Virus record (IMG/VR): IMGVR_UViG_2565956711_000008
Origin: a virus
Taxonomy: Duplodnaviria > Heunggongvirae > Uroviricota > Caudoviricetes
Length of the DNA stretch: 9,461 bases
Direction: 5' to 3' (one strand)
Under the pieces are notes generated by a model. It was given only the letters and a program-made list of their open reading frames with translations. It was not told the origin of the DNA and did not search any database. Both the position numbers and the translations under genes were made by a program. Shown piece by piece: positions 1,553 to 9,396 of this stretch; within the stretch, counting starts at the first letter, position 1, and every line of letters begins with the position of its first letter.

Positions 1553-1741
1553 TCACGAGGACTGAAGTTTCTCGCAATTAAAATTTATCAGTTTTACTTT
1601 CTGCTCTCTGGAAACGCCTGCTTCTTTTTTACCTGAGAGCATTTTTTCGCATTCTGATTTCGTTAGTTTAGATTTTGAATATCTTGTCCAGTTAGTAGGA
1701 GTGCCACCTTCCTTTTCAATAGTGGCGGTAATTTTATACAT
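1553..1741 (-). CDS. ydaC: Small Rac prophage protein of unknown function (YdaC-like), 62 aa
   Basis: ORF MYKITATIEKEGGTPTNWTRYSKSKLTKSECEKMLSGKKEAGVSREQKVKLINFNCEKLQSS. ATG at 1739-1741 is preceded by GGAGGTG and is embedded in the last codons of the ralR frame (overlapping genes). Position between xis and ralR matches the Rac gene order I recall. Confidence 0.6.
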   Translation of the reverse strand: MYKITATIEKEGGTPTNWTRYSKSKLTKSECEKMLSGKKEAGVSREQKVKLINFNCEKLQSS

Positions 1742-1928
1742 GAACACCTCCATTATTATTTCCAGTGGTTCGTTTATTTCATCGTTCGAGTGCTTCTTTT
1801 TCACTTCCACCATAACCGGTTCGGGATTCGCATCCGTTACACTTCGCTCGGTAATATCCTGAAATGGCTTTCACCGTTACTGATGGACAACCACAAAATG
1901 GACATGGTTTAACATTGTCATATCTCAT
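1734..1928 (-). pseudogene. ralR: RalR (Lar) type I toxin / restriction-alleviation gene with an internal in-frame TGA
   Basis: From ATG 1926-1928 the frame reads MRYDNVKPCPFCGCPSVTVKAISGYYRAKCNGCESRTGYGGSEKEALER, then TGA at 1779-1781, then continues open as NKRTTGNNNGGVHV to TAA at 1734-1736, overlapping the ydaC ATG. My recollection of RalR has Trp (TGG) at the stop position, so this looks like a TGG-to-TGA change giving a 49-aa product. Confidence 0.62.
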
Positions 1929-1955
1929 AATTTTTCTCATAAAAATATTTCAAGT

Positions 1956-1976
1956 TGGCGGTGCATTACACCGCCA
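1956..1976 (-). other. Inverted repeat / RNA hairpin between recT stop and ralR start
   Basis: TGGCGGTG (1956-1963), loop CATTA, CACCGCCA (1969-1976): a perfect 8-bp GC-rich stem. On the minus-strand transcript it is followed after 6 nt by AAUAUUUUU. Could be a weak terminator or an attenuator upstream of ralR. Confidence 0.25.
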
Positions 1977-1996
1977 GGCTGAATTATTCCTCTGAA

Positions 1997-2794
1997 TTAT
2001 CGATTACACTGTATTCCCCCGGTTAATACAGAGGAATCTGCAGGATCGATTGTCAGTGGTTCCTTTTCATCCATTGATACTGCACGCTGGATCTCAATTG
2101 ATACGGGCAGATATTTGAACAGGCGACGAATAGCCGTTTTCTTTGCCATTTCTTCCCAGTGAGTTACCCACGGCCCGTTATTACCAGCTTTACTCTGGCT
2201 GCGCACCAGCTCAATCTGTTTGCGCGTCATAACTTCAAACTGAGTACCTCCGTCTTTCAGTCTTGCGACAGCATAGACGTGGGTAACAGGGGCATCTTCG
2301 TTTTCTCCTGGGCGGTGTATTAACTTTTCATCAAGGCCAAATTCGAAATTAAACTCGTCACCTTCACGGACAACACGGGCTGACAAGCTGGCGATTTGAC
2401 CTGAACGGCGAGCCAGATCAATCATGCCGCGATAGCCAATGATTAGCTGAACGTTTTTTTTACCGCTCTTTTCGTTTTTATTACCAAAAGGCAGTAAATA
2501 TGCATGACCGAGGGCGCTACCGGGCTCAAGTCCGAGCTGTGAACACTGTACGATTGCACTGACAAAACTCATAGTGTCACAGTTTCCTAACGCCGGAACT
2601 TTACGAATTTCTGTGGTGGCGATACGGATCATACGTTCAGCCGTCATATGGCGTGGAAGAGCTGCTGCCAGTTGCTCTTTCATTGATGGCTGGTTAATAA
2701 AACTAATCACGTCGTTATTTTTAATTGCTGCTGGTGCACGGTTTCCCTGAGTTTTTTGCAGATCGGCTTTTGCGATTGGTGGTTGCTTAGTCAT
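1997..2794 (-). CDS. recT: RecT single-strand annealing recombinase, with altered C-terminal tail
   Basis: ORF from ATG 2792-2794 ([21 protein letters not shown]...) to TAA 1997-1999; AAGGAA lies upstream. Start overlaps the recE stop (ATGACTAAG), the classical recE-recT coupling. Matches my recollection of RecT except the last residues, which read GIQCNR instead of [10 protein letters not shown]. Confidence 0.9.
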
Positions 2795-4137
2795 TTGCAT
2801 ATTCCTTAGCCCAGCGGGGCAGTGATAACGTCTTAATAGCTGGCCATTCATCGGTATTGAGGCAGTCAGCCAGGGTTCGCAGATTGCGGTGATATTCCAG
2901 CTGACCTGCCAGTTTTGCTTCTTCGCCCATCATGAAAATTTCAACCGGATAACGTCCGCATTCAATAGTTGTGCTGGCAACCAGAAAAACGAAAGTTGGC
3001 TGCACTCCAAACTGTGCTTCATAACCGTCACTGTAGAATGCATCCTGAACGTGATAGCGGTAGTCGTAATAAGCGGTTTTGAATCGTTGAATATCCGCCG
3101 TAGTTTTCACGTCCATGATCCAGTGAAATTCAGGGATAATTTTGTCCGGACGGCACCGACACAAAATTGCTGTTTCAGGATCTTCCCAGTAAATTGATGA
3201 TTCAGCGTGTCCGGCGCTTTCAACAAGCCATTGCCCCAGCGGCAAAGCCATAACGCTCTGATACATGAGTTCAATTTTCCGGCCTTCTTCGGCAGTGATA
3301 ACCGTTTTTCCTGTGCTTGCGCATTCCCTCAGAAACGCTTTCTCTTCTTCTTTTCCGGAGTTTGTCCGGCGGTTAAATTCAGGTGCTACGATAAAGCGGT
3401 TACTGAATTCTTCCGGCTCAAGTACCCGGCAGTGGAAAGCGGTTCCTAAATCGAGCGTTTTTGTCTTTGTGGTGTCCACGGGGGCATTTTTACGCCACAA
3501 ATACAGTGCCGGAGTATCAGCAATGTCATCGAGCTGAGACTTACTGACACCGGGACCCGCGTGGTAATTCTCATTCGAAATTCCGTAATAAATACCTGGC
3601 TCTATGTCTTCTACGATTACGGGATCTGCGACTTCGCCAGTTTCATCACTGCAATCGCGATGCGGATCGCTGCCAGCATTCTCATTGTGCGGATGTTCAG
3701 CGCCTTCCATTTCCTCCGGATCATTTTCCTTAGCTTCAACCTGACTCTCTTCATCGAATGTTTCCTGGTATGTTGCGTCGCCCATCACCGCACCACAGTC
3801 AGGGCAGTTATCCCCGCCAGTCTGGCCGCAGGCATTGCAGGCTATTTCCGGTTCCTGTTGCACTACTGGCTCAGGTTGATTCATATCCGGGCTGGTTTTT
3901 TCCGTTTCTGGCTGGTTCTGGTACACACAATCGCGAGTCTGGATCCCCTTTACCCATTTCGGATCGTTCGGGTCGCTAATTCCGTCAACAAATTCACCAC
4001 GTGATGCAGCAAGCAATTTATCGGCATCGACAGGATTTTTTGATGGAATGTTTTTCCGGGCTTCATGGAGTTCTGCCCGCAGTTCCTGATATTTCGCATC
4101 AACAGAATTTACCTGTGACTGAGCATCCAGCGGCTGG
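2787..4137 (-). pseudogene. recE: 5'-truncated recE (exonuclease VIII) remnant retaining the complete C-terminal nuclease domain
   Basis: Minus-strand frame is open from the stop at 4182-4184 down to TAA 2787-2789. Translation from about 4137 downward ([23 protein letters not shown]...[10 protein letters not shown]...[13 protein letters not shown]) matches roughly the C-terminal half of RecE as I recall it. No recE N-terminal half is present; upstream the frame runs into antisense IS1. First in-frame start is the TTG at 4014-4016, with no obvious Shine-Dalgarno. Confidence 0.85.
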
Positions 4138-4351
4138 CTGGCCGCTGTATGAATCCCGCCTGAAGGGAAAGCTGCACGTAATCAGCAAGCGATATACGCA
4201 GCGAATTGAGCGGCATAACCTGAATCTGAGGCAGCACCTGGCACGGCTGGGACGGAAGTCGCTGTCGTTCTCAAAATCGGTGGAGCTGCATGACAAAGTC
4301 ATCGGGCATTATCTGAACATAAAACACTATCAATAAGTTGGAGTCATTACC
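4135..4351 (+). mobile_element. Partial IS1 (3' terminal ~217 bp: insB 3' end and right terminal inverted repeat)
   Basis: Plus-strand translation [66 protein letters not shown] equals the C-terminus of IS1 InsB as I recall it. It is followed by the IS1 terminal sequence AAGTTGGAGTCATTACC ending at 4351. The rest of IS1 is absent. Confidence 0.85.
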
Positions 4352-4551
4352 GCGCTCTTTACTCATTCGTTTACAACGTGGGTGCTGGCAATTTCAGAAC
4401 ATCGACGCTTCTTCGCAAAATAAACCAGGGCGATATCAAAGGCGCATGTGATCAGCTACGTCGCTGGACATATGCTGGCGGTAAGCAATGGAAAGGTCTC
4501 ATGACTCGTCGTGAGATTGAGCGTGAAATCTGTTTGTGGGGTCAGCAATGA
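4352..4551 (+). pseudogene. 3' fragment of a lambdoid phage lysozyme (endolysin R-like) gene, truncated by IS1
   Basis: Immediately after the IS1 end the frame reads [65 protein letters not shown], the C-terminus of the lysozyme family I recall from E. coli lambdoid prophages. Stop TGA at 4549-4551 overlaps the Rz ATG (ATGA). No N-terminal catalytic part and no start codon. Confidence 0.8.
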
Positions 4552-5012
4552 ACAGAGTAACCGCGATTATCTCCGCTCTGGTTATCTGCATCATCGTCTG
4601 CCTGTCATGGGCTGTTAATCATTACCGTGATAACGCCATTACCTACAAAGCCCAGCGCGACAAAAATGCCAGAGAACTGAAGCTGGCGTACGCGGCAATT
4701 ACTGACATGCAGATGCGTCAGCGTGATGTTGCTGCGCTCGATGCAAAATACACGAAGGAGTTAGCTGATGCGAAAGCTGAAAATGATGCTCTGCGTGATG
4801 ATGTTGCCGCTGGTCGTCGTCGGTTGCACATCAAAGCAGTCTGTCAGTCAGTGCGTGAAGCCACCACCGCCTCCGGCGTGGATAATGCAGCCTCCCCCCG
4901 ACTGGCAGACACCGCTGAACGGGATTATTTCACCCTCCGGGAACGACTGGTAATGATGCAGGCCCAACTTGAAGGTGCTCAGCAATACATAACCGAGCAG
5001 TGTTTAAAGTAA
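4548..5012 (+). CDS. rzpR: Rz-like inner-membrane spanin, 154 aa
   Basis: [55 protein letters not shown]... is near-identical to lambda Rz as I recall it: N-terminal transmembrane helix, coiled-coil periplasmic domain. ATG overlaps the lysozyme-fragment stop. Confidence 0.88.
4768..4953 (+). CDS. rzoR: Rz1-like outer-membrane lipoprotein spanin, embedded in the +1 frame of Rz
   Basis: [57 protein letters not shown]...: signal peptide with lipobox (VVGC) and the proline-rich mature region typical of lambda Rz1. Wholly nested inside Rz. Confidence 0.85.
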
Positions 5013-5149
5013 AATCTTAACTACAATATGATTCATTTTGATGATTGTTTCATAAGGAACAGTGAAGTAAGATCTAAGAGGAGTTAAATTTTATACAGTA
5101 TAATCATAATATTGCAGCAAGGTGGTTATAATTGAAAGAATATTTAGAT
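5013..5149 (+). promoter_or_regulatory. AT-rich upstream region of trkG (promoter not resolved)
   Basis: 137-bp strongly AT-rich gap. Consensus -10 hexamer TATAAT at 5099-5104 but no convincing -35 at the right spacing. AAGGTGG at 5119-5125. Confidence 0.3.
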
Positions 5150-6607
5150 ATGAATACATCTCATGTAAGAGTTGTTACTCATATGTGTGGGTTCTTGGTT
5201 TGGCTCTATAGTCTTTCAATGTTGCCACCAATGGTTGTAGCATTGTTTTATAAAGAAAAAAGCCTGTTCGTTTTCTTTATAACTTTCGTTATATTTTTTT
5301 GCATTGGTGGCGGAGCGTGGTATACAACTAAGAAATCTGGCATTCAATTACGTACCCGTGATGGGTTTATTATAATTGTAATGTTTTGGATTTTGTTTTC
5401 TGTTATTAGTGCATTCCCTTTATGGATTGACTCAGAACTTAATTTAACGTTCATTGATGCTCTGTTTGAAGGGGTTTCTGGAATAACAACAACAGGAGCA
5501 ACTGTAATTGATGATGTTAGTTCATTACCTCGGGCATATTTGTACTATCGGTCACAGTTAAATTTTATAGGTGGTTTAGGAGTTATTGTTCTGGCGGTTG
5601 CAGTATTGCCATTATTGGGTATTGGTGGTGCAAAGCTTTATCAGTCAGAAATGCCGGGGCCATTTAAGGATGACAAACTCACTCCCCGCCTGGCCGATAC
5701 GTCACGGACACTGTGGATAACTTATTCTTTATTAGGTATTGCTTGTATTGTCTGTTATAGACTTGCAGGAATGCCTTTGTTTGATGCTATTTGTCACGGG
5801 ATTTCCACAGTTTCGCTTGGTGGTTTCTCAACTCATAGCGAGAGTATCGGATATTTTAATAACTATTTGGTTGAGCTGGTGGCTGGTTCTTTTTCCCTGC
5901 TATCGGCTTTCAACTTCACTCTTTGGTATATTGTTATTAGCAGAAAAACGATAAAACCTTTAATCAGAGATATTGAACTTCGTTTCTTTCTGTTAATAGC
6001 CTTAGGGGTGATCATTGTTACCTCTTTCCAGGTCTGGCATATAGGTATGTATGACTTGCATGGAAGTTTTATTCATTCGTTTTTTCTTGCCAGCTCCATG
6101 CTCACTGATAATGGTTTAGCTACGCAGGATTATGCAAACTGGCCCACGCACACGATAGTGTTTTTGCTGTTGTCAAGTTTCTTTGGGGGATGTATAGGTT
6201 CAACCTGTGGTGGAATTAAGTCACTTCGATTTCTTATACTTTTCAAACAAAGCAAACACGAGATAAATCAGCTTTCTCATCCCAGAGCGTTGTTGAGTGT
6301 AAATGTAGGAGGGAAGATAGTTACAGATCGTGTAATGAGGTCTGTATGGAGTTTCTTTTTTCTTTATACTCTCTTCACGGTGTTTTTTATACTGGTGTTA
6401 AATGGTATGGGATATGATTTTCTTACATCATTTGCAACAGTGGCTGCATGTATTAATAATATGGGATTAGGTTTTGGGGCTACTGCATCGTCATTCGGAG
6501 TGCTTAATGACATTGCAAAGTATTTAATGTGCATAGCTATGATTCTTGGTCGCCTTGAAATTTATCCTGTTATTATATTGTTTTCAGGTTTTTTTTGGCG
6601 CTCCTAA
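5150..6607 (+). CDS. trkG: TrkG potassium uptake protein (TrkH/TrkG family), 485 aa
   Basis: ORF MNTSHVRVVTHMCGFLVWLYSLSMLPP... to TAA 6605-6607, matching my recollection of Rac TrkG. Multi-pass membrane protein with the family glycine motifs (e.g. TTTGATV, GGLG). Markedly AT-rich relative to flanking phage genes. The ORF is also open from TTG 5132, which has a better-spaced Shine-Dalgarno. Confidence 0.9.
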   Translation: MNTSHVRVVTHMCGFLVWLYSLSMLPPMVVALFYKEKSLFVFFITFVIFFCIGGGAWYTTKKSGIQLRTRDGFIIIVMFWILFSVISAFPLWIDSELNLTFIDALFEGVSGITTTGATVIDDVSSLPRAYLYYRSQLNFIGGLGVIVLAVAVLPLLGIGGAKLYQSEMPGPFKDDKLTPRLADTSRTLWITYSLLGIACIVCYRLAGMPLFDAICHGISTVSLGGFSTHSESIGYFNNYLVELVAGSFSLLSAFNFTLWYIVISRKTIKPLIRDIELRFFLLIALGVIIVTSFQVWHIGMYDLHGSFIHSFFLASSMLTDNGLATQDYANWPTHTIVFLLLSSFFGGCIGSTCGGIKSLRFLILFKQSKHEINQLSHPRALLSVNVGGKIVTDRVMRSVWSFFFLYTLFTVFFILVLNGMGYDFLTSFATVAACINNMGLGFGATASSFGVLNDIAKYLMCIAMILGRLEIYPVIILFSGFFWRS

Positions 6608-6693
6608 TATATGGCTGATTTATAATTGTGAGTTTAATATTATGTTGACTCACTCATTGATCCAATACCTAACTTTACCAGCAACACCTCCGC

Positions 6694-6729
6694 CCCCAGC
6701 AGCACTGGCTGCTGGGGTGCGTTTTATTC
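6694..6729 (+). terminator. Rho-independent terminator downstream of trkG
   Basis: Perfect 10-bp GC-rich stem CCCCAGCAGC (6694-6703), loop ACTG, GCTGCTGGGG (6708-6717), then TGCGTTTTATTC. Begins 87 nt after the trkG stop. Confidence 0.55.
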
Positions 6730-6766
6730 ATAAAGCAAGGCTGTATGAGCGAGAAATTAAAGATAG

Positions 6767-8812
6767 TCTAACGGGAAATACACCGCACAGGATGCAACGA
6801 CAGCACAGAAAGGGATAATCCAGCTAAGCAGCGCGACCAACAGCACGTCTGAAACGCTGGCGGCAACGCCAAAGGCAGTAAAATCAGCCTATGACAATGC
6901 AGAGAAACGTCTGCAGAAAGACCAGAACGGCGCTGATATACCCGATAAGGGACGCTTCCTGAACAACATTAACGCGGTCAGTAAAACAGACTTTGCTGAT
7001 AAGCGTGGTATGCGTTATGTGCGGGTTAACGCTCCTGCAGGTGCAACATCTGGAAAATATTACCCTGTTGTTGTTATGCGTTCTGCTGGCTCAGTAAGCG
7101 AACTGGCATCAAGGGTCATTATCACCACGGCAACGCGAACCGCAGGCGATCCGATGAATAACTGCGAGTTTAACGGATTTGTTATGCCTGGTGGCTGGAC
7201 TGACAGGGGGCGTTATGCTTATGGAATGTTCTGGCAATATCAAAACAATGAACGAGCCATCCACTCAATAATGATGAGTAATAAGGGCGATGATTTGCGC
7301 TCTGTGTTCTATGTTGATGGCGCTGCTTTCCCTGTTTTTGCGTTTATCGAAGATGGCCTGTCAATATCCGCACCTGGTGCTGATCTCGTTGTTAATGATA
7401 CGACCTATAAGTTTGGGGCAACAAATCCAGCGACTGAATGTATCGCGGCGGACGTTATCCTTGATTTTAAGAGTGGGCGTGGTTTTTATGAGTCTCATTC
7501 GTTAATCGTTAACGATAACTTGTCGTGCAAAAAACTTTTTGCCACAGACGAAATTGTAGCGCGTGGTGGTAATCAGATTCGAATGATAGGTGGGGAGTAT
7601 GGGGCATTATGGCGTAATGATGGCGCTAAAACTTACCTGCTGCTTACCAATCAAGGTGATGTTTATGGTGGATGGAATACATTAAGACCGTTTGCTATTG
7701 ATAACGCAACCGGCGAACTGGTTATTGGAACCAAGCTGTCTGCAAGTCTGAACGGTAACGCATTGACAGCAACAAAGCTGCAAACGCCAAGACTGGTTTC
7801 TGGGGTTGAGTTTGATGGTTCAAAAGATATTACTTTAACCGCCGCGCATGTGGCTGCTTTTGCCAGAAGGGCAACGGATACATATGCCGATGCGGATGGT
7901 GGCGTTCCCTGGAATGCCGAATCAGGCGCTTACAATGTCACCCGCTCTGGCGACAGCTATATTCTGGTTAACTTCTATACCGGAGTCGGAAGTTGCCGGA
8001 CCCTGCAGATGAAGGCGCATTACAGAAATGGTGGTCTGTTCTACCGTTCTTCAAGAGACGGTTATGGTTTTGAGGAAGACTGGGCAGAAGTTTATACCTC
8101 GAAAAATCTTCCACCAGAAAGCTACCCAGTCGGCGCACCAATCCCGTGGCCATCAGATACCGTTCCGTCTGGTTATGCCCTGATGCAGGGGCAGACTTTT
8201 GACAAATCTGCTTACCCGAAACTTGCAGCCGCTTATCCGTCAGGCGTGATCCCTGATATGCGTGGCTGGACGATTAAGGGCAAGCCCGCCAGTGGTCGGG
8301 CCGTATTGTCTCAGGAACAGGACGGCATTAAATCACACACCCACAGCGCCAGCGTATCCAGTACGGATTTGGGGACGAAAACCACATCGTCGTTTGATTA
8401 CGGCACTAAATCCACGAATAACACTGGTGCGCATACTCATAGTTTAAGTGGCAGCACGAATGCAGCTGGTAATCACAGCCATAGAGATGGCCGTCGATTT
8501 AACCCCAGTGTTTTTAAAGATACTTATCAATATGGTTATACAAGCTCAGGTCAAAATACCTGGGGTGTACAAGGCTCAGTAGGTATGTCTACGGGGTGGT
8601 TAGCTAATACCAGTACAGATGGTAATCATAGCCACTCACTGTCCGGCACAGCAGCATCTGCAGGTGCACACGCGCATACTGTCGGTATTGGTGCTCATAC
8701 GCACTCCGTTGCGATTGGTTCACATGGACACACCATCACCGTTAACGCTGCTGGTAATGCGGAAAACACCGTCAAAAACATCGCATTTAACTATATTGTG
8801 AGGCTTGCATAA
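6767..8812 (+). pseudogene. stfR: 5'-truncated side tail fibre gene (lambda Stf / Rac StfR-like), C-terminal ~680 codons
   Basis: Frame is open from the stop at 6764-6766 to TAA 8810-8812. From about 6790 it reads [31 protein letters not shown]..., the conserved internal tail-fibre motif (lambda Stf has it mid-protein). It ends [31 protein letters not shown], identical to the lambda Stf C-terminus as I recall it. No N-terminal region is present; the first in-frame ATG is at 7010 and lacks a good ribosome-binding site. Confidence 0.85.
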
Positions 8813-9396
8813 TGGCATTCAGAATGAGTGAACAACCACGGACCATAAAAATTTATAATCTGCTGGTCGGAACTAATGAATTTATTGGTGAAGGTGACGC
8901 ATATATTCCGCCTCATACAGGTCTGCCAGCAAACAGTACCGATATTGCACCACCAGATATTCCTGCTGGCTTTGTGGCTGTTTTCAACAGTGATGAGGCA
9001 TCGTGGCATCTCGTTGAAGACCATCGGGGTAAAACGGTTTATGACGTGGCTTCCGGCGACGCGTTATTTATTTCTGAACTCGGTCCGTTACCGGAAAATG
9101 TTACCTGGTTGTCGCCGGGAGGGGAATATCAGAAGTGGAACGGCACAGCCTGGGTGAAAGATGCAGAAGCAGAAAAACTGTTCCGGATCCGGGAGGCGGA
9201 AGAAACAAAAAACAGCCTGATGCAGGTAGCCAGTGAGCATATTGCGCCGCTTCAGGATGCTGCAGATCTGGAAATTGCAACGGAGGAAGAAACCTCGTTG
9301 CTGGAAGCCTGGAAGAAGTATCGGGTGTTGCTGAACCGTGTTAATACAACAACTGCACCGGATATTGAATGGCCAACAGTACCCATTATCGAATAG
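8812..9396 (+). CDS. tfaR: Tail fibre assembly protein (lambda Tfa-like), 194 aa
   Basis: [51 protein letters not shown]... to TAG 9394-9396. ATG overlaps the stf stop (TAATG). Size and position immediately after stf match the lambda stf-tfa pair. Confidence 0.88.

Follow-up and report, generated by a model that had tools for sequence, protein, structure and literature searches.

A truncated recE next to a frameshifted recT in a decayed Rac prophage of Escherichia coli EC09

A recE gene that has lost its 5′ half and is followed by an almost complete recT raises the question of whether the pair is a latent recombination module or a leftover of prophage decay. The window analysed here, which is the whole stretch of 9,461 nucleotides, contains such a pair on its minus strand. 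An earlier sequence-only reading had described positions 2787-4181 as a partly preserved RecET module, consisting of an orphaned RecE nuclease domain and a near-intact RecT, and had proposed that the configuration resembles the deletions that activate recE in sbcA mutants. Our analysis indicates that the region is very probably an inert by-product of Rac prophage decay, in which a recent, strain-specific deletion left a promoterless and start-less 3′ half of recE together with a frameshifted recT. The feature is real and was correctly recognised; it is also already annotated and ordinary, and it matters little.

Source and layout of the locus

The window matched the chromosome of E. coli EC09 (NZ_CM169492.1) with 100% identity, from about position 3,907,625 onward. 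EC09 is a human gut isolate from Spain, and its genome is deposited as a whole genome shotgun assembly at the chromosome level. The window is a Rac prophage remnant that has been reduced to about 9.4 kb and that adjoins ttcA. The gene order in the EC09 annotation is that of Rac, with intR-xisR-ralR-recT-recE on one side and Rz-trkG-stf-tfa on the other, and the same order is present in E2863, RM10740 and BL21(DE3). The RalA small RNA was also detected in the window (Rfam). The recE and recT pseudogene pair is ordinary and was known before from the RefSeq/PGAP annotation, in which both genes are marked as pseudogenes, and what is left of IS1 and rrrD as partial. The coordinates of the features are given in Table 1.

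The best-known relative of this locus is the recE-recT pair of the K-12 Rac prophage, which encodes exonuclease VIII and the RecT annealase. The K-12 prophage is similar to that of EC09 in its location at ttcA and in its neighbouring genes, namely intR, xisR, ralR/RalA, an rzpR-type Rz and trkG. Unlike K-12 Rac, the EC09 locus is without the recE start and the first 417 codons, and without racR, the rest of the early region and the recET promoter, and its recT carries a +1 frameshift.

Table 1. Features of the Rac remnant, in positions of the whole window
Feature	Position	Strand	Remarks
intR	1-1236	minus	Followed by xisR, a DUF1187 gene, ralR, recT and the recE fragment, all on the minus strand
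recT pseudogene	1984-2794	minus	Start overlaps the end of recE; frameshift, stop at 1997-1999
recE remnant	2787-4136	minus	RecE codons 418-866 and stop codon 2787-2789; start and N-terminal 417 residues missing
RecE nuclease domain, residues 605-866	2790-3575	minus	phmmer against PDB 3H4R; Pfam PF12684
Best candidate internal start, ATG (RecE M560)	3708-3710	minus	After GGAGGAA; 307-aa predicted product
First in-frame ATG (RecE M502)	3882-3884	minus	Weak Shine-Dalgarno pairing, -3.5 kcal/mol
In-frame GTG	3924-3926	minus	Between TTG 4014-4016 and ATG 3882-3884
First in-frame start, TTG (RecE L458)	4014-4016	minus	Anti-SD pairing 0.3 kcal/mol, no Shine-Dalgarno
Deletion junction	4135-4136		TG microhomology between recE and IS1
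IS1 3′-terminal 217 bp	4135-4351	plus	C-terminal part of InsB and right end; alignment to full IS1A
Extension of the open frame through IS1 antisense	4137-4181	minus	45 nt; stop just upstream of 4181
rrrD 3′ fragment (Rac lysozyme)	4352-4551	plus	Begins directly at the IS1 right end
Plus-strand content		plus	IS1 fragment, lysozyme fragment, Rz with Rz1, trkG, 5′-truncated tail-fibre gene, tfaR

The recE remnant, its junctions and recT

The ORF list and the translation showed a minus-strand frame that is free of stops from 4181 down to the stop codon of recE. The open frame that had been taken for the module is therefore present at 2787-4181, but recE itself ends at 4136, the remaining positions are IS1 antisense, and recT lies outside most of this interval. 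The remnant agrees in all 449 residues with residues 418-866 of the intact 866-aa RecE of strain E2863 (WP_000105140.1), which confirms that the remnant is the C-terminal half, or 52%, of RecE. A complete 866-codon recE with its native start was not found, only codons 418-866 being left, and PGAP describes the piece as 'PD-(D/E)XK nuclease-like domain-containing protein, incomplete, missing N-terminus'.

At the DNA level, positions 1900-4136 showed no mismatch to many genomes with an intact recE, and the sole difference was the extra base in recT. The recE remnant is approximately 99% identical to K-12-derived strains, and 80% or more of it was present in about 1,623 genomes. Since there are no substitutions relative to the intact alleles, decay had no time to accumulate and the deletion is young. 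The flawless recE sequence would then be a sign of the recency of the deletion, and would say nothing on selection or function; the locus is an example of how a domain in a pseudogene can look flawless simply because the deletion is recent.

The C-terminal 262 residues of the remnant matched the solved RecE nuclease domain 3H4R with an E-value of 1e-177 in phmmer, and the match to Pfam PF12684 (E = 1e-26) was above the curated cut-off; these two E-values exclude a chance match. Seven substitutions were observed relative to 3H4R, which is the K-12 protein, and the same seven are present in the intact E2863 allele. Residues H652, D748, D759 and K761 are all unchanged in the remnant. D748, D759 and K761, reportedly active-site residues of RecE in the 3H4R structure paper, fit the PD-(D/E)XK motif, and H652 is also an active-site residue by name in the literature (PMC11611040). 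Disabling substitutions in the catalytic residues had been suggested as the point to check by alignment, and none were found in the nuclease domain when the remnant was aligned with the intact alleles and with 3H4R, so that the domain is intact. The earlier statement that a C-terminal part of RecE is sufficient also agrees with published work, in which the nuclease domain 564-866 replaces full-length RecE genetically (PMC11611040) and residues 588-866 together with recT are functional in lambda (PMC3945230).

A three-way alignment of the window, an intact recE and the full IS1A placed the end of the recE homology at 4136 and the beginning of the IS1 homology at 4135, with the 2-bp TG being common to both. 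The IS1 piece has lost its left 550 bp together with the left end; a complete element would have both terminal inverted repeats as well as insA/insB. The InsB piece covers profile positions 64-131 of the 131 in Pfam DDE_Tnp_IS1, and is annotated by PGAP as 'IS1 family transposase, incomplete'. Both the Pfam match and the IS1A alignment place it on the plus strand, i.e., oriented away from recE, as had been stated. No ATG, GTG or TTG was found when these codons were sought in the antisense frame at 4137-4181, and therefore IS1 provides no fusion start for recE. On the other side of the IS1 piece, homology to an intact rrrD resumes from 4352; this fragment covers positions 78-125 of 125 in Pfam Phage_lysozyme and is annotated by PGAP as a partial rrrD.

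Both junctions are unique to EC09. An 80-nt probe for the recE/IS1 junction and a 100-nt probe for the IS1/rrrD junction each gave an unbroken match in EC09 alone among 5,426 complete E. coli genomes, and the search of these genomes for a lineage or progenitor carrying either junction returned EC09 only. With each junction confined to a single genome, the remnant has no conservation signal. In the complete Rac-type prophages of RM10740 and E2863, a long gene block is located between the recE break point and rrrD, and in RM10740 this block measures about 14 kb. The block that was lost in EC09 comprises the 5′ half of recE, a racC-like gene, ydaE, kilR, sieB, ydaF, racR, ydaS, ydaT and the replication genes, and also an additional phage-gene block, a holin gene and half of the lysozyme gene rrrD.

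Comparison with three intact recT genes showed that the recT frameshift is a change from G4 to G5 on the coding strand (the plus-strand C run at 2016-2020), and PGAP labels the gene 'frameshifted'. The frame of 269 codons is no longer intact, and the frameshifted RecT consists of 259 native residues followed by GIQCNR in place of the native last 10. The RecT domain was recognised by Pfam (PF03837, E = 9e-57) and by its match to Listeria RecT 7UB2 (E = 1e-14). The Pfam domain is kept as a whole, but the description of RecT as near-intact understates the damage to the gene, which is frameshifted and annotated as a pseudogene. Because only the last 10 residues are altered, and this change falls outside the Pfam RecT domain and beyond the alignable end of most distant RecT homologues (approximately residues 240-262), the frameshifted RecT may still anneal DNA. 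The Shine-Dalgarno sequence of recT has been kept, with a predicted anti-SD pairing of -6.0 kcal/mol. The overlap of recT with the recE stop is also annotated by PGAP in intact Rac loci.

Prospects for expression

The immunity and early region (racR, ydaS/T, kilR and sieB) is missing both in the window and at the EC09 locus, and is present in RM10740 and E2863. Its loss took away the only known recET promoter. All genes annotated over approximately 5 kb upstream of the remnant read against recE (the IS1 piece, the rrrD fragment, Rz, trkG, the tail-fibre gene and tfaR). Because the early promoter/operator region has been deleted and everything upstream is transcribed oppositely, the truncated recE and recT are expected to be without meaningful transcription, and silence is most likely. 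In MG1655 (K-12), the recET genes are described as 'completely repressed', and become active only via rare sbcA mutations or lambda capture (PMC3945230).

A consensus scan for sigma-70 promoter-like sites, a sequence-level test that misses weak or non-sigma-70 promoters, found none on the minus strand between 2700 and 4590. When sigma-70-type promoters and intrinsic terminators were scanned over 2700-5200, nothing above chance was observed, with a total of 3 promoter sites compared to the 3.1 expected from shuffled sequence. Two minus-strand promoter-like sites are located farther upstream of the remnant, at 4618-4590 and 4953-4924. AT-rich prophage DNA often initiates transcription spuriously, and the ends of IS1 can form hybrid promoters; the left end of IS1, which is the sole end able to aim a hybrid promoter at recE, is missing here. 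From the lack of both a promoter-like site and a co-directional gene upstream, we infer that 'probably silent', as the region had been called, is the best reading, and that the remnant is likely to be without function.

In terms of translation, the remnant has no native start, and its translation showed that the TTG at 4014-4016 and the ATG at 3882-3884 are the first in-frame starts, as previously named. The pairing energies in Table 1 support the view that neither codon has a clear Shine-Dalgarno sequence; however, the ATG at 3708-3710 with its GGAGGAA had been overlooked. This motif forms an anti-SD duplex of -9.5 kcal/mol, which is the strongest in the whole remnant, but just 2 nt, an unfavourable spacing, separate it from the ATG. 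The product predicted from M560 includes the nuclease domain as bounded previously (564-866; PMC11611040). Given a transcript, some translation of this predicted 307-aa nuclease from the ATG is conceivable.

These observations bear on the alternative that the region is a latent, functional truncated RecET. According to this alternative, a weak cryptic promoter in the antisense strand of IS1, rrrD or Rz would supply a low-level transcript, M560 or M502 would serve as the internal start of a RecE reduced to its nuclease domain, RecT would be slightly altered, and some RecA-independent recombination of linear DNA would result, similar to that of sbcA strains. We consider it improbable. It can draw on the intact nuclease domain with its catalytic residues, on the genetic sufficiency of residues 564-866 or 588-866 (PMC11611040, PMC3945230), on an internal ATG with the strongest anti-SD pairing of the region, on a recT that keeps its Shine-Dalgarno sequence and whole Pfam domain, and on the two upstream promoter-like sites. 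However, those two sites are no more than expected by chance, and they are located 450-800 nt upstream, within oppositely transcribed genes. The GGAGG is at just 2 nt from its ATG, recT is frameshifted, and junctions that are private to one genome carry no signal of conservation. A long untranslated antisense RNA is moreover a target for Rho termination, which counts against a transcript of this kind. Less probable still is the full scenario in which a low-level cryptic antisense promoter and the M560 start would give a natural minimal RecET, with constitutive RecA-independent linear-DNA recombination in a wild gut isolate. Expression of the remnant would make it such a natural minimal RecET; since recombineering work has already established how truncated RecE behaves, the finding would be a modest one even if true.

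The proposed likeness to sbcA mutants was examined in the same terms. The sbcA mutations switch on the normally repressed recET genes (PMC3945230, PMC9504249). As in EC09, the Rac rearrangements in sbcA mutants of K-12 can leave a shortened RecE, which can there still be active, the C-terminal domain being sufficient (PMC11611040). In recET activated in this way a promoter would read into recE, and at the sequence level neither such a promoter nor a fusion start codon was found in EC09. The mutations studied by Chu et al. in 1989 and by Mahajan et al. in 1990 reportedly derepress the genes or supply a promoter, and the fusion cases are said to supply a start codon as well. The likeness is therefore superficial, as the EC09 deletion removed the promoter region and supplied no promoter or start. 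A similar difference applies to ET recombineering, in which RecE (588 or 602 to 866) is used with RecT. The whole of this segment is unchanged within the EC09 remnant; however, the constructs used for recombineering are driven by an inducible promoter, are given a start codon and are paired with an intact recT. Efficient linear-linear recombination requires full-length RecE (PMC11611040).

Other strains and the probable route of the deletion

The truncation of recE with retention of recT is a recurrent and ordinary outcome, because independent truncations were found in 2017.01.04CC, JNQH497 and BL21(DE3). In 2017.01.04CC, 1,479 nt of recE are kept and a complete IS1 adjoins them; in JNQH497, 1,602 nt are kept and a complete IS1 is present in the other orientation. 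BL21(DE3) has an internal recE deletion that results in a 276-nt 5′ ORF and an 831-nt nuclease-domain pseudogene, and it keeps racC and kilR upstream. Like EC09, all three have a decayed Rac prophage in which a recE pseudogene with the nuclease domain is followed by recT. EC09 differs from them in that 1350 nt of recE are kept, the break point is different, the IS1 is truncated, and recT is frameshifted, whereas recT is intact in the other three strains.

An artefact, with errors of the EC09 assembly at the recE/IS1 junction, at the extra G of recT or at both sites, was considered as a second alternative and is very unlikely. In its favour, the chromosome-level assembly is of the whole genome shotgun type, the frameshift is in a homopolymer (G4 to G5) and thus of a type typical of long-read errors, and both junctions occur in a single genome only. 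However, the collapse of a repeat would join the flanks at a complete IS1, whereas the observed join is a 2-bp microhomology inside an IS1 that is without its left 550 bp. Elsewhere the locus is colinear with those of other Rac remnants. The recE/IS1 junction is thus very probably real. A random 50 kb of the EC09 assembly contained no frameshifted CDS among 44 features, which speaks against an assembly full of homopolymer errors, and because of this sample the recT frameshift is taken as probably real; an error at the extra G is unlikely, although less so than one at the junction.

The least likely alternative is that selection maintains the remnant for a different role, for example as a homology reservoir for lambdoid phages that rescue recET or in the context of ralR/RalA: several independent truncations do keep the recE 3′ end with recT, and infecting temperate phages acquire DNA from defective prophages through homologous recombination, as when lambda-rev phages gain recET from Rac (PMC3945230), but any deletion with its left end inside recE retains these sequences, the zero substitutions relative to intact alleles allow no conservation beyond recency to be demonstrated, and the frameshift already acquired by recT argues against purifying selection.

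Decay of the Rac prophage by a recent deletion, which is the preferred reading, can be reconstructed in outline, although the order of events is one that we infer. A Rac-type prophage at the ttcA site of EC09 would have lost about 14 kb, from recE codon 417 to the middle of the lysozyme gene, most likely in two steps. In the first step, the right end of IS1 would have been joined to the middle of rrrD, either by insertion or by an IS1-mediated adjacent deletion. In the second step, an illegitimate deletion at the 2-bp TG microhomology would have fused the interior of IS1 to the middle of recE. The 1-bp frameshift near the end of recT would have been gained after the deletion. The locus thereby adds one more path of Rac decay, i.e., an IS1-associated microhomology deletion that removes the toxic kilR and ydaS/T together with their repressor and keeps trkG. 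EC09 has also lost its head and tail genes, through a second large deletion located between trkG and the tail-fibre gene.

The recE linker and a possible internal start

No function has been assigned in the literature to the portion of RecE that comprises the N terminus and the linker (PMC11611040). Within the linker, the recE remnant of EC09 encodes a CxxC-x7-CxxC motif that resembles a zinc ribbon or knuckle; Pfam gave no match to the motif. Further downstream, the ATG corresponding to M560 is preceded by GGAGGAA, which has the strongest anti-Shine-Dalgarno pairing found anywhere in the remnant. This ATG could be an internal start located shortly upstream of the nuclease domain (residues 564-866), or the arrangement could be due to chance.

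Features of the Rac remnant, with window coordinates
Feature	Position	Strand	Details
RalA sRNA	1557-1735	+	Rfam match, 225 bits
GGAGGAA and ATG (RecE M560)	3708-3719	-	anti-Shine-Dalgarno pairing -9.5 kcal/mol, 2-nt spacing
CxxC-x7-CxxC motif (RecE residues 517-531)	3795-3839	-	linker ahead of nuclease domain
IS1 right end and rrrD 3' fragment	4330-4400	+	directly adjoining
Rz1-type lipoprotein ORF	4768-4953	+	out of frame within Rz gene (4536-5012)
Second large deletion	6608-8812	+	trkG to tail fibre
Rfam family IS009 (RF02111)	9155-9353	+	227 bits, within tail-fibre assembly gene tfaR

recE and recT alleles in other genomes

Relatives of the 5' to central region of recE, represented by nt 306-1772 of the intact gene of E. 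coli E2863 (L002:5716-7182), were 81-89% identical and were found in thousands of E. coli genomes, with 2,640 records having a best match of 80-90%. These relatives are annotated as 'exonuclease' or '3'-5' exonuclease', and this region of recE appears to be mosaic, with sequence that other prophage genes share. The recE gene of BL21(DE3) (L007:5001-6100, NC_012971.2) carries an internal deletion that leaves a 276-nt 5' ORF and an 831-nt nuclease-domain pseudogene, while recT is intact and racC and kilR remain upstream of recE. As an analogue of a promoter-proximal, shortened recE, BL21(DE3) is nearer than EC09. In Escherichia phage vB_EcoS-666R9 (ON470614.1, 38.7 kb), the RecT encoded at 2052-2858 is 100% identical to that of the intact Rac allele and its gene adjoins an exodeoxyribonuclease VIII gene; the same recET allele is therefore present in deposited phage genomes.

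Other modules of the Rac remnant

RalA is the sRNA antitoxin that partners the RalR toxin in a type I toxin-antitoxin system. The ralR/RalA module looks complete because the RalA match lies antisense to a DUF1187/ydaC-type ORF and adjoins ralR. The intact IS1 right end is directed towards Rz/Rz1 and trkG, and it might influence Rz-trkG transcription because IS1 ends are said to form outward hybrid promoters. The Rz1-type ORF is intact despite the truncated lysozyme gene upstream. Comparison with the complete Rac-type relative RM10740 revealed that the second deletion has removed every head and tail gene that would lie between trkG and the tail-fibre gene, which itself lacks its N-terminus (annotated as partial by PGAP).
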